From NCBI GenBank assembly GCA_965237855.1, contig CBDEGK010000004.1, positions 179,305 through 243,304 of the forward strand: a stretch of DNA of 64,000 nt, written 5' to 3'. The notes beneath the pieces are model-generated. The model did not search any database. It worked only from the letters and a program-made list of their open reading frames with translations, and was not told where the DNA came from. Of this stretch, positions 43,240 to 57,541 are shown in pieces. The position numbers and the translations under genes are program-made. How positions within the stretch are numbered: position 1 is the first letter of the stretch; every line of letters starts with the position of its first letter. The DNA comes from Halieaceae bacterium (GTDB taxonomy: Bacteria > Pseudomonadota > Gammaproteobacteria > Pseudomonadales > Halieaceae).

Positions 43240-45462
43240 TCACTCCAAATAAACTGCATCAGGTCTGGGTTTCAACGGCGGCGGCGAGCGATGCCCCCAC
43301 ACCTCGGCATCGGACAAGAGATGCCCCCATCCGGTAGCCTCGTATTGGTAAGTCGTAGTCTCCTCGATCGCGCCATCACCGTTCTCGTCCCGATCATACC
43401 GCGTTAGATTGCCATCGAGATCGTATTGCCAGGTCTCAAGGTGCTCTGGCCTGCCATTGTCATCGCTGTCCTCTTCCGCGCGCGTCAGCTTGCCATTTTC
43501 ATTGTACTGCCAACTGATTATCTCGCCGTCGCCAGGCTCGCCGGTCGCAAAGCGGGTCAAATTGCCATTGGCATCATAGTGGTAGCTACGGTTGCCGCCG
43601 GATTGGTAGAAATTGCCGCGAATCCAAAAATGCTCAGTGGCTGTGATTTCGTGCAGCATCACGGTGCCATTGGCGTGGTATTGCCACAACTCGAGGCGGT
43701 AGTTGGGTAGCACTCCCTCGCAGATGTCGGCACACTCATAGGGTGCCATGTTCTCATAGCGTGTCACGTTGCTGTTGGCGTCATATTGCCAGATCTCTAC
43801 TTCCGCCAGCTCGCCAGCGACGGCGTCGACTCGATCTGTGCGGGTCACTTGGCCGTTGGCGTCATACTGATAATGCCAGGTCTCGATTTCATCCGCCACG
43901 CCGTCGGCGTCATTTTCATATCGTGTCGGTTTGCCCTCTGCATCGTAGTGCCAACTCTCGGCACGCTCTGGTGAGCCGTCGGCATCACGATCCAATTCCT
44001 GCCGGGTCACATTGTCATCGCGGTCATACTGCCAACTTTCAATTTGATGGCGCGTGCTGCCAGAAATTTGCTCGGCGTGTGACTCAAACCGGGTAATGTT
44101 ACCGCTGGCGTCGTACTGCTCGCTCTCGAATCCCTCTCTGCCGTCGGCTTCATGCCACGCTTGCCGATACTGCGTCAAGCTGCCGTCAACGTCGTATTGC
44201 CAAGTCTCGAATCCCCCACTTGGCGCATCATCCAAGTCGTCGTCAACCTGAACGTGCGTCGGATTGCCGTCCGCGTTGTACTGGTAACGGATAATTCGTT
44301 CCGGCGTGCCGTTGGCATCTCCATCAAATTCATGCCGGGTTTCATTGCCGTTGGCGTCGTAATGCCGGGTCTGGACTTCGTCATACATGTTAAACAGCAA
44401 AGCGTCACGCTCATACCGGGTCACATTGCCGTCGGCGTCGTACTGCCAACTTTCGAAGCCTAGCGTCTCACTCTCATGGCGGGTCACGTTACCGTTGGCA
44501 TCGTATTGCCAGTGCTCGGTGAATGCCGAATCGTCAGCCCCGTCTCCGTTCGTCCGCACGGTTACCCCAACCGTTTGGGGATCAATTGCCAACGCCGCGT
44601 AGAGGTGTTCAAGCGCGACTGCAGGCTTGACGATCCCATGTGCCTCATTGAATCGCTGCTCCCTGTTCGCTTGCCCCAGCGCGTGGCGCAGCCTTGGCTC
44701 CATCTGAAATGACCGCCAATGTTGGCTCAGATTGAGGCTCACCCCCCGGAAAAGAGCGGCTACGTCGGGGCTGATCTGTATGCCGTTGTCTGGATCGGCG
44801 TCGTGGTCCAGGCTGTGCAACAAAACCGCCAGGTTAATAACGGCGCGGAATGGGTCATCCTCGCCCTCGAGCGCCCAGGTGATATCTATTCCGGTAACCA
44901 CTGCCGAGCCAGCCAGGTCAAACGGCGTCACCTCTGCTCGACCCACAACCTCACCGAGCACGGTATCGCCAATCAGAAAACGAACCGTTTCACCTTGTGC
45001 GTACTCAAAGCTGCCATCGAGATTCGTAAACCCCTGATAGCTTGGACTCTCGTAAGCCACGCCCGCCGCCGGACCACCTCCCAGATAGCCGACTACTCCG
45101 GTAATGGGCTCAAACACCGCTGTGCTCGGGGGAATCTCATAATCTGGATAGGTCTCATCCATCCAGGAAACCCAATCTTCTTCTGCGTCAATGCGGCAGT
45201 ACTGAAAATCGGACTGTTGCGAGCACGGCCCTTCCCAGCGGACGAAGCGCCAGCCGGGCCTGGGTTCCGCTTTGTAGTTGACGAAGTAGTTGCCGCTGAC
45301 CTCATTCTCGCTGCAAGCGGTGTCCTGCGTGAGAAATTGTTCGAGAGTACAGCCATGGCCGGAGTTGTTGGCGTCGACAATATCACCCTCTCCCACTACT
45401 GCCAGGGGGTGTTTACAGGCTTGGAGTATGAGGATGACTGCCAGAGTCGTGAAAATCCTCAT
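43240..45462 (-). CDS. YD/RHS-repeat lipoprotein without a recognisable toxin or Rhs-core domain
   Basis: 740 aa. The lipobox is AVILILQAC. At least 12 repeats of the type (E)xWQYDANGNVTRxE fill the C-terminal 430 aa. Confidence 0.75.
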   Translation of the reverse strand: MRIFTTLAVILILQACKHPLAVVGEGDIVDANNSGHGCTLEQFLTQDTACSENEVSGNYFVNYKAEPRPGWRFVRWEGPCSQQSDFQYCRIDAEEDWVSWMDETYPDYEIPPSTAVFEPITGVVGYLGGGPAAGVAYESPSYQGFTNLDGSFEYAQGETVRFLIGDTVLGEVVGRAEVTPFDLAGSAVVTGIDITWALEGEDDPFRAVINLAVLLHSLDHDADPDNGIQISPDVAALFRGVSLNLSQHWRSFQMEPRLRHALGQANREQRFNEAHGIVKPAVALEHLYAALAIDPQTVGVTVRTNGDGADDSAFTEHWQYDANGNVTRHESETLGFESWQYDADGNVTRYERDALLFNMYDEVQTRHYDANGNETRHEFDGDANGTPERIIRYQYNADGNPTHVQVDDDLDDAPSGGFETWQYDVDGSLTQYRQAWHEADGREGFESEQYDASGNITRFESHAEQISGSTRHQIESWQYDRDDNVTRQELDRDADGSPERAESWHYDAEGKPTRYENDADGVADEIETWHYQYDANGQVTRTDRVDAVAGELAEVEIWQYDANSNVTRYENMAPYECADICEGVLPNYRLELWQYHANGTVMLHEITATEHFWIRGNFYQSGGNRSYHYDANGNLTRFATGEPGDGEIISWQYNENGKLTRAEEDSDDNGRPEHLETWQYDLDGNLTRYDRDENGDGAIEETTTYQYEATGWGHLLSDAEVWGHRSPPPLKPRPDAVYLE

Positions 45463-45674
45463 TTCTCTGCCTCCTGACGCTGGAAGGCGACCCAGCCTAG
45501 CGCGTTGGCGAAAAATGGTAGTAGTAATATTATAGTCCAGATTGGCTGGATGAGCCGCGCAAGCTGGTCTTCTGCTACCCAGCGAATGGCAGGCCGACCG
45601 TCAGTTTTTCGGTCACAGCGGACCCCGTTCAATCCCGGTTTACCCAGATTCAACTCCGGAACGATGCAAGTCCC

Positions 45675-45707
45675 CTATACTCCGAAAGCGGACATTCGCG
45701 GTCTGCT
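45675..45707 (+). repeat. bipartite array repeat, copy 1 (3' half only; leftmost element of the array)
   Basis: CTATACTCCGAAAGCGGACATTCGCGGTCTGCT matches the 3'-half consensus. No 5' half was seen upstream. Confidence 0.8.
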
Positions 45708-45804
45708 GTACTAAGAGAAATTTTCGATTCAAAATTACCGACGGAGTATGCGTCCATGAGACGTGATATAACATGTCGCTTAGACTTTGAATAGGCTGTT
45801 AGGC
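45708..45804 (+). repeat. conserved ~97-bp leader module, copy M1, ending in the core site GTTAGGC
   Basis: Alignable with the copies at 51093, 54177 and 57446. It contains the palindrome GACGTGATATAACATGTC (45760-45777) and ends GGCTG|TTAGGC. Confidence 0.8.
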
Positions 45805-45823: not shown

Positions 45824-46330
45824 ATGGAGATGAATTGGGAAGCGACAGGAGCAATCGCGGAGCTCCTTGCTGCTCTGGGGGTTATAGCAACACTGGTATA
45901 TTTGGCGGTCCAGATTAAGCAACAAGGTACCTCACAGATTGAGAGTAGCCACAAAGAAGCAAGGGGCCAGTCCTACCAGAGCCTGCTGATGGGCTTACAG
46001 AATCACTTCGGTGCGGTCGCGTTAGACGAAACACTTTCGGATATATTTCGAAGGGGTCTGGCTAGCTACGAATCTCTAAATTCTCTAGAACAATTTCGAT
46101 TTAATTGGGTGCTAGGCGGCTATCTGGTAACCAATGAGAACGCTTTCTACCAGAAGAAAGATGGCATATTGTCCGAAGACCGCTGGGACCATCTGTTCAG
46201 AGCATTGAAGTGGTATTATTTATCCCCTGGTGTCAGAGAGTGGTGGCTGAGCTACCCAAAAGATACCCTCCATCCGGAGTTTGCTGCCCTAATTGAAGAG
46301 TATATTCGAACCATCGAAGAAGCCGCCTAA
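45824..46330 (+). CDS. cassette ORF, family A (N-terminal TM anchor, ~150-170 aa), paralogue 1
   Basis: 168 aa. MEMNWEATGAIAELLAALGVIATLVYLAVQIKQ aligns with the N-termini of the ORFs at 47916 and 57561. The stop codon lies inside the attC R'' box. Confidence 0.75.
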   Translation: MEMNWEATGAIAELLAALGVIATLVYLAVQIKQQGTSQIESSHKEARGQSYQSLLMGLQNHFGAVALDETLSDIFRRGLASYESLNSLEQFRFNWVLGGYLVTNENAFYQKKDGILSEDRWDHLFRALKWYYLSPGVREWWLSYPKDTLHPEFAALIEEYIRTIEEAA

Positions 46331-46414
46331 CAAGTCAGTCAAATTCGCGCCTATCGGCGCCGGACAGCCTAATCGCGGCTTCGCCGCAGGCTACCGTTTA
46401 CTGAGGCGTTACGT
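46325..46414 (+). other. attC recombination site (X1)
   Basis: The site reads GCCTAAC-aag-TCAGTCAAA...TTTACTGA-ggc-GTTACGT. L''/L' pair with one extrahelical C. R'' is the exact complement of the cassette start GTTAGGC at 45798. Confidence 0.75.
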
Positions 46415-46426
46415 CCGCTTCTAGGT

Positions 46427-47653
46427 GTGGATTCAACCGGTCGACGCAACACACGCGTTAAATCGATCAGCTGGTGTTTCGTAGTCTAGCGTTTTTCTCG
46501 GTCTTTCGTTCAGCCGTCTTGCGACGCGATTTAGCTCTGCCTGTGAGTGGACAGACAAATCAGTACCCTTCGGGAAGTACTGCCTCAGTAGTCGGTTGGT
46601 GTTCTCGTTTGAGCCTCGTTGCCAAGGACTCCTCGGATCGCAGAAGTACACTTGAATATCTGTCGCCAGCGTAAATTTCTTGTGGTCACATAACTCCGAA
46701 CCACGATCCCAAGTGAGCGACTTATAGAGTTCGTTGGGCAACTTGCGGGCTTGCTTGATCAAAGCCCGGATCACCGTTTCTGTATTCTTGTTCTCAACCT
46801 TGGCCAGCATCACATACCGGGTCTGGCGTTCCACTAGGGTGGCAATGTACGTATAGTTTGGGCCGGCGATGAGATCCCCCTCCCAGTGACCGGGAACTGC
46901 CCGGTCCTCCACCGAGGCTGGTCGCTCACTGATCGGCACTGCATCCACAATCTTCCCCAATCCCTGCCCTTTCAAGCTGGCATGCTTTGAACGACGCATC
47001 ACACGCTGGGTTCTCAGGCACGCCAAGAGTTCCTTCTTCAGAACGCCGCGGGCCTGTATATACAGACTCTTGTAGATAGTTTCGTGTGACACGTGGTAGC
47101 ACTCATTTGTCTGGTATTGCCGCTTTAACCAGCCTGCAATTTGTTGAGGTGACCACTCAGTTTGTAACTTCTTAGTGATCACCCGCACCAGGCGAGGCTG
47201 GCCTGCCAACTTGCAAACCTTGGGTCGCAAGGCTCGCCGCCAAGCCGCTTCCTCGGCCGAGCTGGCTCGATAGGAAGCATACCCTCCATTGCGCCGAATT
47301 TCCCGGCTCACCGTAGACGGAGATCGGCCAAGTTCAGATGCAATGGCACGCATGGATTGCTGCTTCGCCAGACCCCTGGAGATGATCTCTCGTTCCGCGA
47401 GGGTCAGCGCCAGGGCGGAGCGCGTTCTATCAATGGGGCGGATGCCACCAGTCCTCGAAATAATTCCCTGAACCGAACTGTGGCTTCGGTCAAAAAGGCG
47501 AGCTATTGCATGGAGAGAATCGCCTTTTTCCCAGCGATCCCACATCAGGGCCTTCTGCGTATTTGAGTAATATATCCGAGGCTTTCGTTTCATCAGCAAC
47601 ACTCCTTCTCTCTGCTAAGAGATTAAAGTGTTGCGTCGACCGGTTGAATCCAC
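46427..47653 (-). mobile_element. IS30-family insertion sequence (1227 bp)
   Basis: Perfect 26-bp terminal inverted repeats GTGGATTCAACCGGTCGACGCAACAC lie at 46427-46452 and 47628-47653. AGGT flanks both ends. There is a single transposase ORF. Confidence 0.9.
46433..47596 (-). CDS. IS30 family transposase
   Basis: About 387 aa from MKRKPRIYYSNTQKALMWDRWEKG, with an HTH N-terminus and a DDE region carrying HWEGDLI. Confidence 0.9.
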   Translation of the reverse strand: MMKRKPRIYYSNTQKALMWDRWEKGDSLHAIARLFDRSHSSVQGIISRTGGIRPIDRTRSALALTLAEREIISRGLAKQQSMRAIASELGRSPSTVSREIRRNGGYASYRASSAEEAAWRRALRPKVCKLAGQPRLVRVITKKLQTEWSPQQIAGWLKRQYQTNECYHVSHETIYKSLYIQARGVLKKELLACLRTQRVMRRSKHASLKGQGLGKIVDAVPISERPASVEDRAVPGHWEGDLIAGPNYTYIATLVERQTRYVMLAKVENKNTETVIRALIKQARKLPNELYKSLTWDRGSELCDHKKFTLATDIQVYFCDPRSPWQRGSNENTNRLLRQYFPKGTDLSVHSQAELNRVARRLNERPRKTLDYETPADRFNACVASTG

Positions 47654-47915
47654 AGGTCATAGCAGACGTAGCACCCTCCTGGTTGGATCTGGTTCTCCTT
47701 GCGAACGAGTAAGGTCCGCTATACTCCGAAAGCGGACGTTCCCCCGCCCGATTATCTACCTTGCCTAGGTATAGAGTGCCCCAAACATCCGCAAACAACT
47801 CAAAGCGGAACTAAGGGCAGATGGTGCAACTAGGGCTGCATTGCTAGGATAGCGGAACAGGGGAGCTAAGGAGCTCCGAGCCTTTTTATTGTTTTGCAAC
47901 TAGTAAGGAATTCAT

Positions 47916-48377
47916 ATGAATGCGCTTGATCTGTCAGGCTGGGCTGCGTTAGCCGAGATAATTGCCTCCGTCGGCGTTGTTTTCTCTCTCCTCCTTGTCG
48001 CGTATAGCATCAAGCGAAATACCAGTGAAATGGAAACATCCAATTCCAATTTCTTGTATCAGCTTGATGCAGAAATTGGTGGTGACCTATCTCGAGACAT
48101 TGGATTGGCGACACTGACTCTCAAAGTGAGACAAAACGATGCTCTGTCGGACGTAGAGAAAATTCAATACTTGGCGTTCCAGGCCCGCTATCTGGGTATA
48201 TTGGAGATTGCCTGGACCCAGTACAAAAGTGGAGCTTTGGCCTCCATTGATTGGCGAGACTGGGATAAGTACCTGTCTGATTATGTGAAGGAAGGTCTCC
48301 CCAAGGAATGGTGGATTGAGATTAGGCCATTATATAAACCTGAGTTTGCCGAACACGTAGACAGTAAATTTGAGTAG
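47916..48377 (+). CDS. cassette ORF, family A, paralogue 2
   Basis: 153 aa. The TM anchor is WAALAEIIASVGVVFSLLLVAYSIKRN. The C-terminal W/P pattern is shared with paralogues 1 and 3. Confidence 0.7.
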   Translation: MNALDLSGWAALAEIIASVGVVFSLLLVAYSIKRNTSEMETSNSNFLYQLDAEIGGDLSRDIGLATLTLKVRQNDALSDVEKIQYLAFQARYLGILEIAWTQYKSGALASIDWRDWDKYLSDYVKEGLPKEWWIEIRPLYKPEFAEHVDSKFE

Positions 48378-48472
48378 GATTTCGATGTTTTTCAAGCGAA
48401 TCAGGTTATCGATCATTCTTCGTCTGTATAGATGGAGTCAGCGCCCAGCAATGACCGCCAACAACTCACAGC

Positions 48473-48560
48473 GAACGTCCGCTCCTAGGTCAAAGCAGAC
48501 CTAAAGCCTCGTAGCGGAGCTAGGGCTGCTACACTCCGAAAGCGGACATTCCGAGGCAGT
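48473..48560 (+). repeat. bipartite array repeat, copy 3
   Basis: GAACGTCCGCTCCTAGGTCAAAGCAGACC, a 23-nt spacer, then GCTGCTACACTCCGAAAGCGGACATTCCGAGGCAGT. Confidence 0.85.
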
Positions 48561-48826
48561 TACTCGGAGATGCAGCTATCACCTCCATGTGGACTCTGGC
48601 GCTCGAAGTCGTAGGGCCTGCTTTTGGCACATAGCGTGCACTGAGTTTGAGCTAGGATTCTCAAAGAGCATGCATTTAGTGGAGTACTTTGTAGTCGTTA
48701 GTGTTTGTGTATACTCAAGGCATGTTGCTATGCACCCACCTATCAACGTTATTGAGTCGTAAACCAAAAGCCTTACCGATGGTGTACAAGTTATATATCA
48801 CCGAGACATCCAATAAGCTGTTATAA
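48561..48826 (+). repeat. diverged, longer leader-module-like sequence ending in the core GTTATAA
   Basis: The 3' part, TTATTGAGTCGTAAACC...GAGACATCCAATAAGCTG|TTATAA, is alignable with the ends of the other leader modules. Confidence 0.45.
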
Positions 48827-48850
48827 AGCATTAGCAATCCAAACTTATAT

Positions 48851-48926
<76 letters not shown>

Positions 48927-48988
48927 TTACTAACCAGTCCAACTAGATATTGTCAGTTTGCAATTTACAAAGCTAAGCACTTCACAAT

Positions 48989-49351
48989 ATGGGCAACACA
49001 AATTGTGCTGGCAAAAGGAAAAAACGCTTTAAACAGGCTAGGAGTAATTGCACATGCCATATAACAAGTTCGGGCACAAACGCGCTTCGCGCTGGACTCG
49101 TGGCTTCGCCACTTGCCTTCTTTGTGACGGGGGCGCAATGGTTCACAGCGATCGTTCTCAGTAATCAGCTGATACAAGGTGCCTCGCCCTTCCACTGGTT
49201 GGAGATAATTCTGTACGTAACGATTGGTGTTTTTTTAGTAGGGATTGCGACGGACAATGCGCGAGTGCATGCTGTGTTGGCTATTTGGCCGCCACTGTTC
49301 TTTGTGTTGCTCATAGTTCAGATGTCGCAGCCAGAGCAGCTCTTTCGGTAG
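48989..49351 (+). CDS. hypothetical small membrane protein (start uncertain)
   Basis: 120-aa ORF whose distal 80 aa are hydrophobic (2-3 TM helices). It lies between the tRNA and an attC. No similarity was recognised. Confidence 0.3.
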   Translation: MGNTNCAGKRKKRFKQARSNCTCHITSSGTNALRAGLVASPLAFFVTGAQWFTAIVLSNQLIQGASPFHWLEIILYVTIGVFLVGIATDNARVHAVLAIWPPLFFVLLIVQMSQPEQLFR

Positions 49352-49402
49352 CTGGTGCCGACATAGGGTTTTCAGGAACGAAAGGAGCGAACACATGGAA
49401 AC

Positions 49403-49462
49403 TCATAACAAGCGCAAGCAAGCAGACTTGCGTGCTGCCAGCTGCTGTTTCGGACGTTATGT
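49403..49462 (+). other. attC recombination site (X4)
   Basis: The site reads TCATAAC-aag-CGCAAGCAAGCAG...CTGCTGTTTCG-gac-GTTATGT. The L arms pair with two extrahelical bases. R'' is complementary in 6 of 7 positions to the core GTTATAA at 48820. Confidence 0.6.
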
Positions 49463-49557
49463 CCGCTCCTAGGTCAAAGCGGGCATAGCGTCCCCCAGGT
49501 TAGAAGCGTTCATCTCGCAGGCGAACAAGGTCAGCTCTACTCCGAGAGCAGACTTTC
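49457..49557 (+). repeat. bipartite array repeat, copy 4
   Basis: TTATGTCCGCTCCTAGGTCAAAGCGGGCA, a 48-nt spacer, then GCTCTACTCCGAGAGCAGACTTTC. The 5' half begins at the X4 recombination point. Confidence 0.75.
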
Positions 49558-49702
49558 CCTCATTGTATTTTTGGTGTCTGAAGCGACATACGGGAATCGC
49601 TCGTGAAATTCTGCAATCCGTTCGTCAACAAACAGGTCGGTAGAAATATACCGTAGTGGTCTGTCCCCAGTTATCCCACAAATTGTCTGAATTATCGAAT
49701 TA

Positions 49703-50968
49703 ATGTATGGTGAGAATGCATCTAAATCTTGGTTTCCAATGACCAATTTTCATCAGCCGCGTGTACTGCTTGGGAATGCCGCCGTCGCTCTAATTGCGAT
49801 TGCGTGGCTCTTATCATTTCTAATGCAAATTGATGACATGGTCTCAGATCGGCACATGTCGATGGGGTTCTACGTTTCCCTGTCTCAAGATGGCACCCTC
49901 TTCGTGGATAAATTCCGGTCCGAAAACGACAGCGTCGAGGGGCTACAGCAAAACGACATTATCGTTGGCATTGGTGCTAACAAGTTCGAAGATACGGGAG
50001 GCATCCCGCGATCTCAGAGTGCGTTTCGCTCAGCCTTCCTGAATGCCCACGGCCAGGTCCTCATCGAGAGAGGTGGCCAGATAATACCCATCGCCGCACA
50101 AGTGAAACCTAAGCCGCTCGGCTGGCTGTCTCTGGCACTGAATTGTGTTCTTTGCGCACTCGGTCTTCTCGTCGCATTTTTTGGCAAACCGAACCACGGC
50201 ACACGTAGACCAGCGATGATTCTGCTGATCCTTGCAATCGTAGGGATTGATCCCGTAAACGGCCCCACCGGCGATACCGTCATGCTAAGTTTTATTATCT
50301 ATAGTGTCGCCTGTGGCCTGTACTGGCCTATTTCCATCAACTGGCTGCAACACCTGGCTAAACCTGACGTTGAGTATCGTCGACTGCTGCTGCCGTGGCT
50401 GTTTTCAGTCTTCGGCATCGTTGTTTTCTCATTGCACTGGGGTGCCCCAATACCACCCCCGTTCGCCGACCATGCGTTTACTATCTTGTACTGGGCGGGC
50501 ATGGTGTGTTGGTTCGGAACTGTGTTTCTCATTCACTCACGGCTAGAAACAGCGACGCGTCAACAACTTAACTGGGTGTTAGCCGGAGCTGCGTTCTCAG
50601 TTACAGGCGGATTCGCGGCCTTCGCTGCTGGTTGGATCTTGACAAACGATGACCTCAAGTTCCTTGGTTTATTCACTAAAGGATTTTTTGCTACTGGATT
50701 TGCAATGGCAATCCTGAAATCCGATTTCGGACACATTGACCGTGTTGTAAGCGTCTCATTGACCTATGCAATCCTCGTCGCGCTGTTCGCCCTATCTCTT
50801 GAGTTTTTTGTCGAGCCGTTGGCGGTCTTCTCAGCGACCTACATCGGCTTGCCAGAAGAAACAGGTAAAACGATACTCATTGTCATTGTCGCTTTAGGTA
50901 CGCCGGGACTAAAGAAAATGATTCAACCCGGGATCAAAAATTACTTCCTCGGTGTTTCATCCGCATAG
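49703..50968 (+). CDS. polytopic membrane protein with an N-terminal PDZ-like domain
   Basis: 421 aa. It has one TM helix, a PDZ-like segment (GLQQNDIIVGIGANKF...IERGGQIIPI), then about 7 TM helices. The ATG at 49739 is an alternative start. Confidence 0.6.
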   Translation: MYGENASKSWFPMTNFHQPRVLLGNAAVALIAIAWLLSFLMQIDDMVSDRHMSMGFYVSLSQDGTLFVDKFRSENDSVEGLQQNDIIVGIGANKFEDTGGIPRSQSAFRSAFLNAHGQVLIERGGQIIPIAAQVKPKPLGWLSLALNCVLCALGLLVAFFGKPNHGTRRPAMILLILAIVGIDPVNGPTGDTVMLSFIIYSVACGLYWPISINWLQHLAKPDVEYRRLLLPWLFSVFGIVVFSLHWGAPIPPPFADHAFTILYWAGMVCWFGTVFLIHSRLETATRQQLNWVLAGAAFSVTGGFAAFAAGWILTNDDLKFLGLFTKGFFATGFAMAILKSDFGHIDRVVSVSLTYAILVALFALSLEFFVEPLAVFSATYIGLPEETGKTILIVIVALGTPGLKKMIQPGIKNYFLGVSSA

Positions 50969-51007
50969 TAAAGATAATTGGAGACAGACCCCAGTTTTAG
51001 ATATTTT

Positions 51008-51092
51008 GAGTGACTGCTTTTAGGTCCTACCGACAAACCTCTCAACTGAATAAGGTCGGCTATACTCCGAAAGCAGACGTTCGATGTCTACT
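51008..51092 (+). repeat. bipartite array repeat, copy 5 (5' half degenerate)
   Basis: GAGTGACTGCTTTTAGGTCCTACCGAC, a spacer, then GCTATACTCCGAAAGCAGACGTTCGATGTCTACT. Confidence 0.7.
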
Positions 51093-51190
51093 ATGCTGAG
51101 AGAAATTATTGACTCAAAACCACTGCCGGAGAAATGTGTCCAGGAGACGTGATATAACACGTCACTTGGACAATGAATAAGCTGTTAGGA
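51093..51190 (+). repeat. conserved leader module, copy M5, ending in the core GTTAGGA
   Basis: Nearly identical to the copy at 54177. The palindrome GACGTGATATAACACGTC lies at 51146-51163. Confidence 0.85.
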
Positions 51191-51198
51191 GGCACGAC

Positions 51199-51684
51199 AT
51201 CGAAGAAGCCGAGACATTTTCGCTACTGGCAGAGGTAGCCGTCGCGCTCGCTGGGTTCACTGGTGTTGCAGCTGCGTTCGGCGGTCGGTCTCGTGAGTAT
51301 TCCGCAGCCGACCGAGTCCGTCTTGCAGCAATTTTTCTTTCCAGCGCGTGTGTCCTCGCAATTAGCCTTTGCGTGCTTACGCTCAAAAGCATCCTATTGG
51401 ATGCTGAAACGGTTTACGCCTACAGTGGTCTCTTGGGAGCTTTCTTTTTGGTTTGGTTCCTCTATCCACTTACACCTAGAACTTACGCGCTGGCCAGGGA
51501 TGCTGATACCTCCACCTCTCTGTCAATCGTCACACTGGGAACGCTTCAGAACGTTATAAGCCTGGTCTTATTACTTGCTAACTTTATTGTTTGGAGATCG
51601 GCCGGGCCGTTACTTGCAGCGGCGTCGATCCAGATTATGTGGTCGCTGTTGCTTTTCGCTCGTCTTTTAGTCCGACCCAACTAG
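51199..51684 (+). CDS. cassette ORF, family B (polytopic membrane), paralogue 1, with no canonical start codon (ATC aligned to the paralogue's ATG)
   Basis: The frame is open from 51181. (I)EEAETFSLLAEVAVALAGFTGVAAAF aligns with METTDLLLVGAEVSVAFAGFAGIIATF of the 51959 ORF. AGGAGG lies 6 nt upstream of the ATC. The first canonical start (GTG 51373) would delete the conserved N-terminus. Confidence 0.45.
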   Translation: MEEAETFSLLAEVAVALAGFTGVAAAFGGRSREYSAADRVRLAAIFLSSACVLAISLCVLTLKSILLDAETVYAYSGLLGAFFLVWFLYPLTPRTYALARDADTSTSLSIVTLGTLQNVISLVLLLANFIVWRSAGPLLAAASIQIMWSLLLFARLLVRPN

Positions 51685-51695
51685 GCTATGCGCTC

Positions 51696-51770
51696 TCCTA
51701 ATAAGTCAATCAACTACGCGCCTCTGGCGCCGGACTGGCTTACAGCCAGCCGGTTATTGAGGCGTTACTG
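51696..51770 (+). other. attC recombination site (X2)
   Basis: The site reads TCCTAAT-aag-TCAATCAA...TTATTGA-ggc-GTTACTG. It has the same architecture and extrahelical C as X1. R'' is complementary in 6 of 7 positions to the cassette start GTTAGGA at 51184. Confidence 0.7.
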
Positions 51771-51857
51771 AACGACCGCTCCTAGGTCAAAGCAGACGTA
51801 GAGAGCCAGTTGGCAGGATGGCCGCTATACTCCGTGAGCAGCCATTCGCCGTCTGTT
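51770..51857 (+). repeat. bipartite array repeat, copy 6
   Basis: GAACGACCGCTCCTAGGTCAAAGCAGACG, a 25-nt spacer, then GCTATACTCCGTGAGCAGCCATTCGCCGTCTGTT. Confidence 0.8.
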
Positions 51858-51958
51858 ATGCATAATGGCAGTAAACTACTCTGAAGGGTCATTCGCCTGA
51901 CTGTCCCACCCTCTCCATTTCGGTCTATCCTTGTATCAATCTAATATCTAGGAGATCG

Positions 51959-52504
51959 ATGATGGAGACGACTGACTTACTATTAGTTGGGGCTGAAGTG
52001 AGTGTGGCGTTTGCCGGGTTTGCAGGCATTATCGCAACATTTCAATTTAGGGATGATAGAGAAATCAAACGTGGTGACGTAGTAGGACTGACAATGATTG
52101 TCCAAATTTCCTTAGGGTGTGCGTTGCTCACTGTTATCCCTATAGTTCTCTCAATCATTGGAATCGACGAGGGGACATTGTGGGCCGCTTGCAGCGCCTT
52201 TGGAGCCAGTTGGGGCACTTACAACATGTACGTTGTAAATAGAAATATGAGGGGAGCCGGCAGGAAAACTTCTCAGCGAATACTATTCGGGAGTTTTCAA
52301 GGAGCGTTTGGCCTCCTCGTTATCTCATTGATTCTCAATGCAGTAGATATTTACTTTCATAGAGAGCCTGGCCCATATCTAGTGGGGCTTGTTCTATGTT
52401 TTAGCTTGGTTAGTTACATGTTCGCGCGTCTACTTCTTCACCCTTTGTGGCGAGCCGTTCAGAGCCAGGAAGCCGCAAATATCAGCGGAGCCACGCCAAG
52501 TTGA
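51959..52504 (+). CDS. cassette ORF, family B (polytopic membrane), paralogue 2
   Basis: 181 aa, about 5 TM helices. The GGAG motif lies upstream of the ATG. Confidence 0.7.
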   Translation: MMETTDLLLVGAEVSVAFAGFAGIIATFQFRDDREIKRGDVVGLTMIVQISLGCALLTVIPIVLSIIGIDEGTLWAACSAFGASWGTYNMYVVNRNMRGAGRKTSQRILFGSFQGAFGLLVISLILNAVDIYFHREPGPYLVGLVLCFSLVSYMFARLLLHPLWRAVQSQEAANISGATPS

Positions 52505-52531
52505 GCGTCCGCTTTTAGATCATAGCGGACC
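52505..52531 (+). repeat. bipartite array repeat, copy 7 (5' half only; perfect hairpin)
   Basis: GCGTCCGCTTTTAGATCATAGCGGACC forms the stem GTCCGCT/AGCGGAC. It starts directly after the family B stop codon. Confidence 0.7.
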
Positions 52532-52607
52532 TCTAATTTACAGGGGATGGAATTGTTCTATAGTTAGTCTTATTGGAATCCAACATTGAAACTGGAGCGT
52601 TGTAATT

Positions 52608-53921
52608 GTGATGATACTTAAGAAAACTCTAACTATTGCCGCTGTTGTTGTCACTGGTGCCACCCTATATATGTGGGGTCATACAGACGCGCGCTATGGT
52701 AGAACTGTGTTTAAGTCTGCAGAAGCTGCAAGCACGCCAATGATTTCTGCAGTCAAGGCGCGGTCGCGCGATGTTTATTCTCCGAATAGTGAGGACCTTG
52801 CATCGGATGAGATGCGTGTTATCGCATGTGGTACCGGTATGCCGACCACCCGCGCCGCGCAAGCTGCTGCCTGCTTTCTCGTCGAGCTTGGAAATGGCGA
52901 CAAGTTCATCTTCGATGTTGGATCCGGTTCGGCCGAACGAATTTCGTCCTTGCAGATCCCTTACGACTTCCTCGACAAGATCTTCATTGGACACCTGCAC
53001 GCCGATCATTTCGGTTCACTGGGAGAGATATTCATCGGGGGCGCACTCATGGGGCGGCAGAAACCGCTACAAGTCTGGGGCCCGAACGGCCCCTCCCCCG
53101 AGCTAGGTACCGCATATGCCGTTCAGAAAATGAAGGAAATGTACACATGGGACCTCGCCGGGCGCGTCGGTATTGTCGACTTTCGGGGTTACACGATTGA
53201 GGTCAACGAATTCGATTACAAAGCTGAAAACGCTGTAATCTATGAGAAGAACGGGGTGACAATCCGCTCGTTTCCCGCGATCCATTCACTCGACGGACCC
53301 GTTAGCTTCAGTCTGGAATGGAACGAGCTGAAATTCGTCTTCGGCTCGGACTCTTATCCCAACAAATGGTTCGTGAAATATGCCAAAGACGCGGATCTTG
53401 CTGTACACGAGTGTTTCGTCGCTGTTCCCGATCTGATCAAGAAGATGAGGTTCACGCCGGAGCAGGCCTTGCTCGTTGGTACCCAGATACACACCGCCCC
53501 GGAGGCTTTTGGCAAGCTAATGGCGGAAATCCAGCCGCGTATGGCCGTGGCGTATCATTTCTTCAAGGATTTTGACACAACTGCGCAAGTGAACGACCGC
53601 ATCCGCACTACTTATGACGGGCCACTGAGCCTTGCTGAAGATTTCATGGTCTGGAACATCACCAAGGATGACATAACTGTCAGGATGGCAGTTGTGGAAG
53701 AACACACGTGGGCGCCGCCTCTGACAGGTGCCCCGCAGCCTCCTGGGGGAGATAAAGACAGAGAGCAATTCAGTAAGGATGCGGGTATTCCCATTGGTGC
53801 GCTATCCTACTCAGATTTTGTCATCGAAGGTCGGTGGAGCGAAGTCGACGAGGCGCTCCGGGGAGTCTACAGGGAGGCGAGCGAGGCGGTTGGCAGGACG
53901 TTTGAATATCCAACGAAGTAG
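52608..53921 (+). CDS. MBL-fold metallo-hydrolase (RNase Z/beta-lactamase superfamily) with an N-terminal signal/anchor
   Basis: 437 aa with the HLHADH motif and a hydrophobic N-terminus LTIAAVVVTGATLYMW. The start is GTG 52608 or ATG 52611. Confidence 0.75.
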   Translation: MMILKKTLTIAAVVVTGATLYMWGHTDARYGRTVFKSAEAASTPMISAVKARSRDVYSPNSEDLASDEMRVIACGTGMPTTRAAQAAACFLVELGNGDKFIFDVGSGSAERISSLQIPYDFLDKIFIGHLHADHFGSLGEIFIGGALMGRQKPLQVWGPNGPSPELGTAYAVQKMKEMYTWDLAGRVGIVDFRGYTIEVNEFDYKAENAVIYEKNGVTIRSFPAIHSLDGPVSFSLEWNELKFVFGSDSYPNKWFVKYAKDADLAVHECFVAVPDLIKKMRFTPEQALLVGTQIHTAPEAFGKLMAEIQPRMAVAYHFFKDFDTTAQVNDRIRTTYDGPLSLAEDFMVWNITKDDITVRMAVVEEHTWAPPLTGAPQPPGGDKDREQFSKDAGIPIGALSYSDFVIEGRWSEVDEALRGVYREASEAVGRTFEYPTK

Positions 53922-54008
53922 AGTAATCGCACTCTGATAAGCCGTGTCAGCTGGGCGCCATGCCACGGCCTCACCACGCGGCAGGTGCCAGTACAATCAA
54001 GCGTTGCT

Positions 54009-54176
54009 GAGGGTCCGCTTTTGGCACAAAAGGGCCCGATTCAGCCCTGAATTTTCCACTCCGCCAACGGCCGGAATTAGGTCATAGCAGACATAACGCA
54101 CTCTAGGCTCCAACCGATGATTCTCGCAGCGGAGCAAAGACCGCTATGCTCCGAAAGCGGATGTTCACGGTCTGCT
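54009..54176 (+). repeat. bipartite array repeat, copy 8, with a ~54-bp insertion in the 5'-half loop
   Basis: GAGGGTCCGCTTTT [54023-54076 insert] TTAGGTCATAGCAGAC, a spacer, then GCTATGCTCCGAAAGCGGATGTTCACGGTCTGCT (54143-54176). Confidence 0.75.
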
Positions 54177-54274
54177 ATGTTGAGAGAAACTCTTGACTCA
54201 AAACCACTGCCGGAGAAATGTGTCCATGAGACGTGATATAACACGTCACTTAGACATTGAATAGGCTGTTATGT
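54177..54274 (+). repeat. conserved leader module, copy M8, ending in the core GTTATGT
   Basis: The palindrome GACGTGATATAACACGTC lies at 54230-54247. The module ends GGCTG|TTATGT. Confidence 0.85.
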
Positions 54275-54334
54275 GTTTCAGGAACGGTCGTTCGACCCTA
54301 AGCGCTCGTATATTTATCTCACAAGGACTCGTTG

Positions 54335-55114
54335 ATGGCGCTTCCAAACACCATCGATTCATTGTGTCGGGACTTATCTGACATAGGACTCGGGTCCGGA
54401 ACGACAGTAATGGTTCATTCCTCGCTGGGTAAAGTTGGCTGGACGGTTGGTGGACCGGTATCAGTGATTCGTGCTCTTCTAGAAGTCGTCGGACCAGAGG
54501 GAACATTGGTCATGCCGGCGGCGTCTCCGAACGTATCTGACCCAAGCGGATGGAATGACAAACGGGTGAAGGCTGACTGGCATGGAACGATACGAGAGCA
54601 CCTTCCCGTGTTCGATCCGCTAACAACACCAACGACGATGGGCGTGATTCCAGAGGCATTTAGGGCGCTTCCCGGAACACTAAGGAGTAACCACCCAATG
54701 GTGTCGGTTTGCGCCAACGGCCCACTTGCAAGGCAAATCACGAAAGAACATTCGATGGAATTTTGCGAGGGTAAGGGGACGCCATTTGAGAAACTCTACC
54801 AGCTAGACGCGCATACGCTATTGCTAGGTGTAGGCTTCAACCGATGCACGTCTTTGCACTATGCAGAGTCGTTGGTGTCTACGCGACGAACGACAGTACA
54901 TAGATTCCCCCTGATGGAGAACGATGACCGAATCTGGGTGGAAGTCCCAGACATGGCAAGCGACGACGGTATTCATTTTCCAGTCGTTGGTGAACAGTTT
55001 GCTGCAACTGGTGCGGTTTGCGCTGGCCGTGTGGGGGAGGCAGATTCGATGCTATTTGCAACTCGACAGCTAGTCGATTTTGCCGAATTGTATTTCGCCC
55101 GAGTGCTCAGTTGA
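54335..55114 (+). CDS. aminoglycoside N(3)-acetyltransferase family protein, AAC(3)
   Basis: 259 aa. LGSGTTVMVHSSLGKVGWTVGGPVSVIRALLEVVGPEGTLVMPA and GFNRCTSLHYAES are typical of the AAC(3)/Antibiotic_NAT fold. Confidence 0.8.
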   Translation: MALPNTIDSLCRDLSDIGLGSGTTVMVHSSLGKVGWTVGGPVSVIRALLEVVGPEGTLVMPAASPNVSDPSGWNDKRVKADWHGTIREHLPVFDPLTTPTTMGVIPEAFRALPGTLRSNHPMVSVCANGPLARQITKEHSMEFCEGKGTPFEKLYQLDAHTLLLGVGFNRCTSLHYAESLVSTRRTTVHRFPLMENDDRIWVEVPDMASDDGIHFPVVGEQFAATGAVCAGRVGEADSMLFATRQLVDFAELYFARVLS

Positions 55115-55195
55115 CGGATGATATCTACAATCCGTAGCCGTATCTACTTGTGGCCGTATACAGAATTGGCATTTTTTTTCATGAACCTAATCAAC

Positions 55196-55285
55196 ACATA
55201 ACAAGGCAATGAATCGGACATCTTAAAGCATGCTTCCACTCCGCTACAGCAAGCATTGAAAATGCCGGTTATCGCGGCGTTATGC
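55196..55285 (+). other. attC recombination site (X3)
   Basis: The site reads ACATAAC-aag-GCAATGAATCGG...CCGGTTATCGC-ggc-GTTATGC. R'' is the exact complement of the cassette start GTTATGT at 54268. Confidence 0.65.
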
Positions 55286-55294
55286 GGTTGTGGC

Positions 55295-55869
55295 GAGCGT
55301 CCGCTCCTAGGTCATAGCTTCCCCGACGCTATCTAAAATAACATTTGTCTCGCGTAGGAAATCATTAGCACCAGCTGTACGCCAAACAATCCGCCACGCA
55401 GAATAACCATCGGCAACGCCGTAGATGTCATATGCACAACCGATTGACCCACCCTTGCGTACAACACAAACATCACCGTACCTTCCAGAATGGCCATTTG
55501 GTCAGACAGGCCTGCCGCTGCGACCAACGCCGTAAATACTGGCAGGGTTTCCAGACAATTGAGATGGGCTCGTGTAACGCGCCGGCCAAACCCAGGTAAA
55601 TCCTCACCATCAGGTGAGAACTGGTTGAGCGCAATTTTCGAACCTCCAAAAGAATTGGCGAATCTATTGACCACCATGATCAGGGTAACGACCAGTGTCC
55701 AAGCTGCAAAACCCGCTAATGCCGTAATTGCTTCGTTCATTATTGCTCTCCGCTTACTTTCAGCTATAGGGCAAGTATTGTTTACCTGATCTACTCCCAT
55801 GAAGCAACCAGCCACGGCAGATACATCATCTGGCGGCTATACTCCGGAAGCGGCCCTTCGGGGTCTGCT
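55295..55869 (+). repeat. bipartite array repeat, copy 9, whose two halves enclose the inverted MAPEG gene
   Basis: The 5' half GAGCGTCCGCTCCTAGGTCATAGCTTCC lies at 55295-55322. The 3' half GCTATACTCCGGAAGCGGCCCTTCGGGGTCTGCT lies at 55836-55869. Confidence 0.7.
55333..55740 (-). CDS. MAPEG family membrane protein
   Basis: 135 aa from ATG 55740 (MNEAITALAGFAAWTLVVTLIMVV...), 4 TM helices, with RAHLNCLETLPVF typical of MAPEG. It is the only minus-strand cassette ORF. Confidence 0.65.
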   Translation of the reverse strand: MNEAITALAGFAAWTLVVTLIMVVNRFANSFGGSKIALNQFSPDGEDLPGFGRRVTRAHLNCLETLPVFTALVAAAGLSDQMAILEGTVMFVLYARVGQSVVHMTSTALPMVILRGGLFGVQLVLMISYARQMLF

Positions 55870-55934
55870 TTGCTGAAGGGCAACTATTCACCTGCAGCAT
55901 GCGGCGAAGCGGCGCTGCTTAACGGGGTCACGTT

Positions 55935-56231
55935 ATGTTCAAGAAACGCAATCTGAGAAGACTCATCGACTCTTTCGGGACCGCGTTCTCTTCTGAACGC
56001 GTCGCTGATCTACAGTCGTATGTTAACCATGGTGAGTATGGATTGGCGATCGAGATATTGAGTGAAATGATCTATGAAGACGATATCGCAGTCGATGCAG
56101 AACAGGAGAAGGCTATTCTCAAGAGTTCTACCGACTTTGGCGTTGACCACGATTACCACGCGTTCATTGGCAGGAGACCGCCGTATCCAGACCTGAGAAC
56201 TCCTGAGCAGATTGCCGACGCTAGGAAATAG
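55935..56231 (+). CDS. small cytoplasmic protein, MafI-like immunity-protein pattern (tentative)
   Basis: 98 aa. YVNHGEYGLAIEILSEMIYEDDIAV resembles a polymorphic-toxin immunity family as I recall it. The ATG sits inside a GTTATGT core (55932-55938). Confidence 0.4.
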   Translation: MFKKRNLRRLIDSFGTAFSSERVADLQSYVNHGEYGLAIEILSEMIYEDDIAVDAEQEKAILKSSTDFGVDHDYHAFIGRRPPYPDLRTPEQIADARK

Positions 56232-56261
56232 CCTATTTTTTGGCAGGGAGAGTAGCCTTGG

Positions 56262-56361
56262 GAACGTCCGCTCCTAGGTCAAAGCAGACCTAGAGCCATA
56301 CACCAACCTCGCAGCCTGGCTAGGTCGGCTATACTCCGAAAGCGGACGTTCAAGGTCTGCT
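56262..56361 (+). repeat. bipartite array repeat, copy 10 (closest to consensus)
   Basis: GAACGTCCGCTCCTAGGTCAAAGCAGACC, a 37-nt spacer, then GCTATACTCCGAAAGCGGACGTTCAAGGTCTGCT. Confidence 0.9.
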
Positions 56362-56448
56362 ATGCTAAATGACAGACAGCGACTCGCTGGAAGCTTCAGC
56401 TCAGCTTACGGGTCATATTGGGTGGAATGACAGCATCGGGGTGGAAAT

Positions 56449-57195
56449 ATGGACGACGCACTATGTAGTACGGAAGATCACGATACATACGCTGTTGTGA
56501 GATTTCACCCTCGAAACAGTTTCTATACGGCAGATACCGAGGCGGTCTCTGAAATGTGGCAGTTATATGACGAGCTACAGATTGAGAGCAAGAAGGTCGT
56601 CCTGTTTAGGTCGCCGAGGGATTATTACGCTCCAAGGATGCTCGATGATTTCTGGAAAACCGCCAAGGCGGCGCCATCGATTCTGCAGTATGACGGACGC
56701 CGCATACCGCAGGTGGTTGCGTACGCCGATATTTCAATCAAGCGCTATCTCGCGTTCATGCATGCCATTCCTGCGATGACCATAAGCTCCATAGAAGGCG
56801 AAATGGATTTCGATTTGCTGGGTTTGTTTCTCACGGCGAGCTACAGGATATGTAGCAGTGATACGGTCTTTGTTAATCGAACCCTCCAGCGTCAACTTCC
56901 CCCAGGATGTGCCACTCCTTGGTTCCTGAGTAACTTACTGGGACCGGTCGTTGCGAAAAAACTGTATCTATCCAACGAGCGGCTAAACGCGGAAGAGGCC
57001 CTGGAGCTGGGTATCGTTGATCGCATAACGGAACCAGATGCATTGGAACGGGAGAGTCTTGAGGTCGTGCAGCAATTTTCCCAAGTTGAGGGAACTGCGC
57101 TCGCGTCACTTGTGCAAGCAATCACCTCATCCAATCACGATCTGGATACTTATCTATCTCAGGCGGGTGCGGGATTCGATCACCTGATTTCATAG
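56449..57195 (+). CDS. crotonase-fold (enoyl-CoA hydratase/isomerase-like) protein with degenerate oxyanion-hole motifs
   Basis: 248 aa. The overall pattern is ...SSIEGEMDFDLLGLFLTASYRICS...LSNERLNAEEALELGIVDRI..., and the usual Gly-rich loops are replaced. Confidence 0.5.
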   Translation: MDDALCSTEDHDTYAVVRFHPRNSFYTADTEAVSEMWQLYDELQIESKKVVLFRSPRDYYAPRMLDDFWKTAKAAPSILQYDGRRIPQVVAYADISIKRYLAFMHAIPAMTISSIEGEMDFDLLGLFLTASYRICSSDTVFVNRTLQRQLPPGCATPWFLSNLLGPVVAKKLYLSNERLNAEEALELGIVDRITEPDALERESLEVVQQFSQVEGTALASLVQAITSSNHDLDTYLSQAGAGFDHLIS

Positions 57196-57359
57196 TCGCC
57201 GGGGAGCCATAAAAATTGGAGCCCTAGTACTCGGGGCGGTTAATGCTCGTAAGGTTTTCTGATTGACAGGAGGTATCTCCCGGCGCTTCTCGCGCCAATT
57301 TTAAGGTGTCCATCAAACCGGAGCAAAACGACGAAGCTCCCATTCCTGATGTCCAATGC

Positions 57360-57445
57360 GAACGTCCGGTTCTAGGTCAAAGCAGACCCTGGGCTTGTGC
57401 TCGCAGTTGCAGCTATACTCCGAAAACGGACGTTCCCAGTCTGCT
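57360..57445 (+). repeat. bipartite array repeat, copy 11
   Basis: GAACGTCCGGTTCTAGGTCAAAGCAGACC, a 23-nt spacer, then GCTATACTCCGAAAACGGACGTTCCCAGTCTGCT. Confidence 0.85.
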
Positions 57446-57541
57446 ATGCTGAGGAAAATTATCGACTCATAACTACTGTCGGAGATATATCATTGTGCCG
57501 CGTTACAACACGGTGCTTTGCCACTGAATAAGTTGTTATGT
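57446..57541 (+). repeat. leader module, copy M11 (more diverged), ending in the core GTTATGT
   Basis: ATGCTGAGGAAAATTATCGACTCATAACTACTG...GCCACTGAATAAGTTG|TTATGT. The central palindrome is replaced by CCGCGTTACAACACGG. Confidence 0.7.

Follow-up and report, generated by a model that had tools for sequence, protein, structure and literature searches.

The 64-kb stretch of contig CBDEGK010000004.1 analysed here (hereafter the window) belongs to a Halieaceae (OM60/NOR5-type) gammaproteobacterium whose SucC is 88-90% identical to the SucC of Halioglobus, Seongchinamella and Haliea. Embedded in its core genes lies a block of about 12.5 kb (45.5-58.0 kb) made of small, mostly unannotatable open reading frames (ORFs), flanked on the left by gpsA, sucCD, zipA, ccm, mdh, a TetR gene and an RHS gene, and on the right by LuxR-type, EamA and MOSC genes. 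The block encodes, among others, an AAC(3) acetyltransferase, a metallo-beta-lactamase (MBL)-fold hydrolase, an enoyl-CoA hydratase-like protein and a MAPEG protein. Five textbook or near-textbook attCs are found in the block (Table 1) and, with no integrase gene found in the window, it is an integrase-less integron cassette array, or CALIN (cluster of attC sites lacking integron integrases). Beside its genes recurs a bipartite palindromic repeat, the subject of this work. The ends of its longest form coincide with integrase-type junctions, the element is confined to the array, and in the window it keeps a single orientation.

Repeat finding, fuzzy pattern search and nhmmer placed every copy, with its hairpins, on the + strand between 45596 and 57535, the orientation of 11 of the 12 genes. 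The nhmmer profiles recovered ten 3' halves, at E values of 6e-10 to 9e-15, and as many intact 5' halves, at E values of 2e-4 to 3e-8; an eleventh 5' half, that of copy c1, is split by an insertion sequence (IS), and two more, at 47783 and 54008, are degenerate. As the profiles were built from these same copies, such matches are expected, and the informative part is that the 64 kb contain no other scoring site: neither nhmmer nor the pattern search found a copy in the remaining ~52 kb of core DNA of the window, against 10-12 in the 12-kb array. A preliminary description of this DNA had therefore placed the two consensus halves correctly, and its view that the repeat is tied to cassette boundaries and absent from the flanking core DNA is borne out by these searches and by the reading of the junctions; the range that it gave, 46411-57445, does hold copies but leaves out one further full copy upstream (c0). 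True relatives were found in a Halieaceae metagenome-assembled genome (MAG; L034) and in seven metagenome contigs (L154, L165, L184, L197, L214, L215 and L216).

Table 1. Copies of the repeat, attC sites and interrupting features of the cassette array, in window coordinates (a vertical bar marks the crossover point)
Feature	Position	Strand	Description
c0, long form	45596..45798	+	Degenerate hairpin X 45596-45624; hairpin Y ~45668-45697; tail 45701-45712; extension to G45798|TTAGGC
Canonical attC i	46325..46408	+	R'' GCCTAAC 46325-46331; L box TCAGT(C)AAA/TTTACTGA, extrahelical C; crossover G46408|TTAC (read from sequence)
c1, left piece of hairpin X (TTACGTCCGCTTCTAGGT)	46409..46426	+	Begins at crossover
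IS30-family insertion sequence	46427..47653	-	Pfam HTH_38 and rve; 26-bp inverted repeats, AGGT direct repeat; within c1 hairpin X loop
c1, remainder	47654..47741	+	Rest of hairpin X, spacer, hairpin Y; no tail
c3	48473..48820	+	X 48473-48505; Y 48522-48551; no tail; diverged ~270-nt extension to G48820|TTATAAAG
Canonical attC ii	49402..49456	+	R'' CTCATAAC; crossover G49456|TTAT
c4	49457..49557	+	X begins at crossover, then spacer and Y; no tail
c5, long form	51008..51184	+	End G51184|TTAGGAGG; attC R'' of next cassette CTCCTAAT (51695-51702)
Canonical attC iii	51695..51764	+	Crossover G51764|TTACTGAAC
c6	51770..51881	+	X, spacer, Y, tail 51851-51862, first ~20 nt of extension
c7, orphan hairpin X	52503..52535	+	Perfect GTCCGCT/AGCGGAC stem; overlaps stop codon of ORF 51959-52504
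Degenerate attC v	53933..54003	+	Crossover G54003|TTGCTGAGG
c7b, degenerate orphan hairpin X	54008..54037	+	A few nt past crossover G54003
c8, long form	54065..54268	+	End G54268|TTATGTG; attC R'' of next cassette CACATAAC (55195-55202)
Canonical attC iv	55195..55279	+	Crossover G55279|TTATGCGG; same junction and hairpin X in L184
c9, hairpin X	55295..55319	+	Truncated after TCATAGC
MAPEG-family gene	55333..55815	-	Between the c9 halves; Pfam PF01124, E 8e-15
c9, hairpin Y, tail, extension start	55831..55893	+	Second part of c9, past the MAPEG gene
c10, best-preserved unit	56262..56385	+	A:A' stem of 11 perfect pairs; tail 56355-56366
c11, long form	57360..57535	+	End G57535|TTATGTGTCTA

In an ungapped alignment of 78 columns and 13 complete units, the repeat resolves into five copies (M1-M5) of the heptamer GTCYGCT/AGCRGAC in alternating orientation. 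The 5' half is hairpin X (M1-N10-M2, GAAC-GTCCGCT-CCTAGGTCAA-AGCAGAC), the first part of the 3' half is hairpin Y (M3-N10-M4, GTCnGCT-ATACTCCGAA-AGCGGAC-GTTC), and the third arm copy of that half, M5, lies 7 nt past M4 within the tail GGTCTGCTATGCT. In full-length copies the tail reads TGCTATGCT and is followed by an extension of ~110 nt, the whole element measuring ~250 nt. The X and Y loops differ from each other and each is conserved, more so than the stems; within X, CTAGGTC-N6-GACCTAG offers a competing hairpin. The left flanks of the copies are not fixed (GAAC, TTAC, TTAT, GAGC, CAAC or GAAT), and some copies lack AAC. The spacer between the halves had been described as 23-48 nt of non-conserved DNA, yet most copies keep a CTCGCAG block at a fixed distance, 16 nt upstream of TATACT, and in c9 the spacer amounts to 512 nt with a reverse MAPEG gene inside. 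Foreign DNA also separates X from Y in L184, by a reverse nuclease-like ORF, and in L154, by an IS5-like element.

The long form, in which the extension follows the tail, is seen in c0, c5, c8 and c11 and in the metagenome contigs L165 and L184, and a diverged version of it follows c3. The extension is composed, in this order, of GAGAGAAATTATTGACTCAAAAC, CGGAG, a hairpin GTCCAnGAGACGTG-ATATAA-CACGTCACTTnGAC and AATAAGCTG. Of the 10 pairs of the hairpin, 2 show compensatory changes, and the diverged extension of c3 has a covarying hairpin at 48774-48808. The extension ends with AAGCTG immediately before the TT of the integron crossover (GCTG|TTA), and conservation stops exactly at G|TTA. Moreover, the cassettes that start after an extension complement the R'' box of their own attC at 6-7 of 7 bases, as revealed by cassettes K1 (start TTAGGC, R'' GCCTAAC), K5 (TTAGGAG, CTCCTAA), K8 (TTATGTG, CACATAAC) and that of L184 (TTAGGTG, CACCTAAC). 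The last cassette, K10, starts with TTATGTGTCTA, and the identical start is found in a homologue that follows an ordinary attC in contig L209. Judged by sequence, the ends of the extension are genuine integron junctions.

At the other end of the element the link with the crossovers is looser. The motif GAAYGTCCGCT (motif A) occurs up to ~25 nt past attC crossovers in c1, c4, c6, c7b, c9, L184, L165 and L034; in L197 an attC-like stretch directly precedes it. The preliminary description had the 5' half start exactly at the crossover; this is true of two of the five canonical attCs (G46408 and G49456), while at the other three motif A stands 4-15 nt further on.

Read as a whole, the array alternates between two kinds of segments. 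Ordinary cassettes (ORF plus canonical attC) directly follow an extension and are in turn followed by a new X. The intervening segments have the order crossover, X-Y-(tail), gene(s), X-Y-tail-extension, crossover, with zero to three genes and a unit before each. The segment 54004-54268, which includes c8, has a crossover at both ends and no ORF. The minimal case is L165, where Y-tail-extension, one cassette and X follow each other; this looks like one site split by one insertion. The same architecture surrounds an MBL gene in L216 (element, gene, long form, AAAAGCTG|TTAAG, next ORF). Placing the repeat at the 5' end of the following cassette, as was done at first, gives only part of the picture: the unit also closes gene-bearing segments and the long form ends at a crossover.

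The account that we tentatively favour, as a possible one, is that the repeat, which resembles repetitive extragenic palindromic (REP) sequences and bacterial interspersed mosaic elements (BIMEs), serves at the level of DNA as the non-coding backbone of a cassette class of its own, supplying a recombination junction and perhaps a promoter. The extension would be the recombination partner, either an atypical attC or an attI-like landing pad, of an IntI encoded elsewhere, in which case the element would spread with cassettes and by homologous recombination between copies rather than by transposition of its own. The X and Y palindromes would be sequence-specific accessory sites or hairpins, which would explain why their loops are conserved, and the tail (TGnTATGCT, similar to an extended -10) may drive the gene that always follows it. 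The combination is undescribed: intergenic palindromic repeats and non-canonical cassette junctions are themselves of known kinds, and we know of no case in which a palindromic repeat is joined to a cassette-junction extension.

Several observations weigh against this account. Hairpin X keeps no fixed register with the recombination point, its distance from the crossover being variable. The extension does not look like a canonical attC: a complementarity search for R''/L'' found no L box, extrahelical bases are absent, and folding of attC type gave the central hairpin alone on either strand. An R''-like box, CTCAWAAC, lies ~62 nt upstream and matches the start of its own segment well in two of four cases, c11 and c3, but in neither c5 nor c8. 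The internal copies c6, c9 and c10 have no crossover and would need decayed or fused junctions, and in L034 the units are inverted relative to the cassette genes. A scan for sigma-70 promoters and terminators found nothing in the repeat above shuffled sequences. No intI appeared in Pfam scans of the 64-kb window, which covered the array neighbours and a sample of the larger ORFs, and it is for this reason that we infer the acting integrase. Finally, the 13 complete units are a small sample.

The long form could alternatively be a portable promoter with a landing pad, that is, a repeated, integrase-independent, attI-like site flanked by palindromic accessory modules; several such forms per array would each capture ordinary cassettes. 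We consider this unlikely. attI sites with their promoter (the Pc-attI platform) and the attI-derived unusual cassettes (PMC12901181) share with the element a non-palindromic conserved left arm that runs to G|TT with the cassette right after it, an upstream promoter-like element pointing into the cassette and repeated candidate binding motifs; they are found as a single copy by intI, whereas here at least five copies occur in one array and no integrase gene is nearby. The element also has no sequence similarity to any of the described attI sites with which it could be compared. An attI proper was rejected as its identity, with no intI in the window scans and five copies in the array.

As the unit sits at cassette borders, we also considered that the bipartite unit is itself a second, attC-like folded recombination site, with GAAC...GTTC as R box, the arms as L box and the spacer as variable terminal structure. 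A nested reading does give two stems, the outer one of 11 bp with AAC/GTT at its ends, that are separated by an internal loop and capped by a loop of variable length, and the element shares with attCs (59-base elements) the imperfect palindrome with a variable centre, as well as a long-form end, G|TTR, like that of an R' box. However, the G of GTT is replaced (ATT, TTT or CTT) in 8 of 16 copies of the unit, the nested model (11-bp stem, 10x10 loop, 8-bp stem) has no unpaired central spacer or extrahelical bases, and the flanks break the rule that a cassette start complements its own attC R''. In addition, conservation runs past GTTC into the tail in most copies, and genes and ISs lie within what would be the loop. 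For these reasons a second attC type seems very improbable. The bipartite unit was likewise rejected as a canonical attC, its GTT/AAC ends not being conserved and a nested R/L architecture being absent; the extension differs from attCs in its one central hairpin, and the element in its length. A CRISPR was rejected because copies stand 490-3080 nt apart with genes between them and are 60-100% alike. Both exclusions agree with the preliminary description.

Its exclusion of REP, BIME and REPIN (REP doublets forming hairpins) elements, and of elements bounded by terminal inverted repeats, does not hold. It took for granted that neither half is the reverse complement of the other. Once reverse-complemented, however, the 29-nt 5' half aligns gaplessly to GGTCnGCTATACTCCGAAAGCGGACGTTC and agrees with it at 14-20 of 29 positions in each copy (mean 57%), and the 3'-half profile matches the 5' halves on the minus strand. 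The two halves therefore form an imperfect inverted repeat whose outer ends are GAAC...GTTC, a geometry shared with REP doublets and with terminal inverted repeats. Such termini are indeed present, as GAACGTCCGCT...AGCGGACGTTC, perfect in c10, and as AGCATAGCAGAG...GTCTGCTATCAT in L215. No direct repeats that could be a target-site duplication flank the copies, and the inner spacer varies in length and sequence.

This geometry is also that of a selfish palindrome of the REPIN/BIME type, or of the type of miniature inverted-repeat transposable elements (MITEs) and palindrome-associated transposable elements (PATEs), mobilised by a REP-associated tyrosine transposase (RAYT), an IS200/IS605-type or another transposase encoded elsewhere; its pile-up in the array would perhaps come from targeting next to attC R' boxes. 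Much of what is seen suits such an element. As in REP, BIME and REPIN elements, each half is a short imperfect palindrome with a conserved outer tetranucleotide, the halves form inverted pairs over a short linker of variable length, and singlets (the orphan hairpins of c7, c7b and L165) occur beside clusters, all extragenic and without target duplications. Copies that are 80-100% alike stand beside unrelated genes, their shared orientation recalls single-strand HUH elements, and L215 is symmetric with a tail at each end. Three different ISs (IS30, IS5-like and IS6-like) lie inside copies, and REP elements are known as frequent IS targets.

What makes a selfish palindrome, the main rival of the cassette backbone, rather doubtful to us is its distribution and its ends. 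No copy is found in the ~52 kb of flanks, and in the L034 MAG the cassette island alone carries copies; REP-type elements are dispersed, whereas this one is seen in cassette arrays only (64 kb of the source genome and one related MAG scanned). Neither a RAYT nor a Y1 transposase is among the scanned window ORFs, the two loops differ and are separately conserved, which would not be expected of a self-copying symmetric hairpin, and transposition leaves unexplained why the tail and 110-nt extension, which REP elements do not have, end exactly at an integrase crossover. The probabilities that we attach to the cassette backbone, to a REPIN/MITE-type element and to the expression module discussed below overlap in part.

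Other palindromic repeats were compared with the element. Correia/ERIC-type MITE-like repeats are imperfect palindromes of ~100-150 nt in transcribed intergenic DNA, and like the element they may have outward promoter-like ends and RNA hairpins; the element differs in lacking a TA or other target duplication, in its variable inner spacer, in its confinement to arrays and in its asymmetry, with a one-sided tail except in L215. PATEs derived from IS200/IS605 carry a hairpin at either end of one strand, target a set tetranucleotide on the left and go with a TnpA(Y1) in the genome; the element has hairpins and a single orientation, and its left flanks are not a fixed tetranucleotide. A MITE as such was rejected: terminal inverted repeats are present, but there is no target-site duplication and the spacer is not conserved. 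Three unrelated ISs interrupt or truncate copies, 3 of the ~16 seen, namely the IS30-family element at 46427-47653, the IS5-like element of L154 (226-1305) and the IS6-like element of L165 (2237-2920).

The preliminary description had read the halves as a four-arm or pseudoknot fold, with compensatory substitutions in several copies. Pairing models were scored as the percentage of paired cells against 500 shuffles. The pseudoknot model (A:A' plus B:B') reached 73.7% against 72.2% in shuffles, 82 of 500 of which attained the observed value; the model of two local hairpins reached 77.5% against 77.0% (206 of 500), and the nested long hairpin 75.3% against 74.4% (153 of 500), with slid controls at 27-49%. 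Pairs changed on both sides numbered 3 against 4.2 expected for the pseudoknot, were at or below the shuffled mean for the local hairpins and lay marginally above it for the nested model (5 against 4.5). No pairing model thus exceeds its shuffles: the substitutions quoted earlier for copies 3, 5, 6 and 7 are present, but their compensatory effect is not above chance. Both strands did fold better than shuffles (z about -0.2 to -4.4) and alike, with no strand preferred, and the wobble counts tie as well (8 G-T against 8 C-A for A:A', 13 against 10 for M4:M5).

These results show that the complementarity lives in the consensus and that single copies do not maintain the pairing, which speaks against selection for an RNA or single-strand fold in the individual copies. 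They fit a palindromic master whose copies decay, or binding sites in double-stranded DNA in which each half-site drifts on its own; conserved loops together with no covariation fit a DNA site in which sequence, not pairing, is kept. The non-nested complementarity noticed before arises from the extra arm M5. Three of the ten window copies, c1, c3 and c4, have neither this arm nor the tail that holds B'.

Of all the explanations, a four-arm or pseudoknot fold, adopted by a structured non-coding RNA or by single-stranded DNA, is accordingly the least probable, and we give it hardly any weight. In the consensus, its arms A:A' (11 nt) and B:B' (8 nt) complement each other without a mismatch and in non-nested order, and one both-sided change in c6 preserves a B:B' pair; against this stand, beside the shuffling results and the equal folding of the strands, the absence of B' from those three copies and of B from several, and a 3-nt linker that would have to span an 11-bp helix. 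Rfam, searched at gathering and at permissive thresholds, returned a tRNA-Gly alone, the repeat matching no family.

The tails were next to gene starts with some regularity: in 12 of 13, a co-oriented ORF starts 61-151 nt downstream. Moreover, 9 of 13 keep TGn followed by a hexamer with A2 and T6, and TGnTATGCT is an extended -10 look-alike, so the tail may, as a hypothesis drawn from these motifs, drive the gene that follows. If this were the main function, the repeat would be a cis-acting expression module of the + strand, with X as 3' stabiliser or insulator, TATACT and the tail as promoters and the AGCGGAC/GTCTGCT hairpin as 5' mRNA stem-loop of the downstream gene. In agreement with it, a copy precedes nearly every ORF of the array, CTCGCA keeps its fixed 16 nt before TATACT and the M4:M5 stem has G-T wobble pairing on the + strand only. 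On the contrary, the consensus promoter scan is negative in the repeat with poor -35 matches, no RNA helix shows covariation, the L034 units are inverted relative to their genes and c1, c3 and c4 have no tail. An expression module of this kind is improbable in our view.

Small ORFs of 2-22 codons in the tail and extension were judged non-coding, neither frame nor length being conserved. The best sigma-70-like site of the region lies just past c7, upstream of the MBL gene, at 52537-52564 (TTTACA-16-TATAGT, 10 of 12 matches). A sigma-54-like motif, TGGCAC-N5-GTGCA, is found at 48626-48641 in the diverged extension of c3, and a similar one, TGGCACATAGCGCGCC, in L034 at ~4868-4883.

To return to the distribution, a scan of the genomes of 185,579 species with a 19-nt core gave 93 matches where ~70 are expected by chance, and L034 alone was real; nearly all matches were in coding sequence (codons of Tyr-Thr-Pro-Glu-Ala-Asp). 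Upon reading of its match, L030 was rejected as a relative, and L067, probably unrelated, was not retained either. Exact-pattern scans of the metagenome collection, whose matches were all read, likewise gave mostly chance matches and, as true relatives, L154, L165, L184 and L197. In the viral collection there were 38 matches, all in one phage gene family and none with the other motifs, and in the plasmid collection no match to the long form. A full-text literature search with four 15-16-mers of the repeat found no match, and a keyword search nothing similar.

L034 holds a small cassette island with two diverged units around two cassette-type genes and no copy elsewhere in that MAG. L214-L216, reached via MBL homologues, have more diverged copies, whose tail is the same and stands 64-133 nt ahead of the start codon, and L215 is the symmetric version with tails at both ends. 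All interpretable contexts of the relatives are cassette-like arrays; the search for copies in related genomes, proposed with the preliminary description, therefore yielded array contexts in L034 and the seven contigs. Homologues of the 152-aa cassette protein (L204-L213) lie in ordinary attC cassettes without the repeat.

In L214-L216, the MBL gene is preceded by the diverged element and a conserved leader starting with CTGCTATGCT. A marine cassette array, L206, has its own, different inter-cassette repeats (6150-6380, 8686-8866 and 10614-10677), some with AGCRGAC-like motifs right past crossovers; array-specific repeats other than attC may therefore be common.

Integron arrays are thought to be built from two kinds of sites, attI and attC, and most of their cassettes are silent. 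In this array, about half of the junctions use a third, conserved element of ~250 nt, distinct from both. Should the extension indeed work as a partner of IntI, such cassettes would escape cassette finders, which rely on attC models, and CALINs would be more dynamic than assumed. A landing pad would mean a new class of integron recombination site, with CALINs that stay recombinogenic and expressed, and a promoter in the tail would give a built-in answer to how distal cassettes are expressed. Even as a REP-like parasite only, it would be the first known to us that is specific to cassette arrays, and would offer a homologous-recombination route for gene shuffling. What was most exciting in the original finding, a pseudoknot or ribozyme-like structure, is not supported.

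Some features of the array deserve mention in their own right. A 740-aa RHS-repeat ORF (43240-45462, - strand), with internal repeats spaced 63-165 nt start to start (several of them 81 nt), adjoins the array on its left in divergent orientation, at the usual position of intI. A tRNA-Gly(CCC) gene (48851-48926) lies 30 nt past the crossover G48820|TT and is followed by ORF 48989-49351 and a canonical attC; it therefore appears to be part of a cassette. ORF 54332-55114 encodes an AAC(3)-type aminoglycoside N-acetyltransferase (Pfam PF02522, E 5e-76) in an ordinary cassette of this environmental, integrase-less array. The MBL-fold protein (52608-53921) has thousands of homologues of ~80% identity and is GntH-like according to one source. 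ORF 51199-51684, of 161 aa, resembles by eye the N-terminus of ORF 51959-52504; no ATG, GTG or TTG codon opens this ORF, which begins directly after AGGAGG at the cassette start and may use an ATC start or be a pseudogene.

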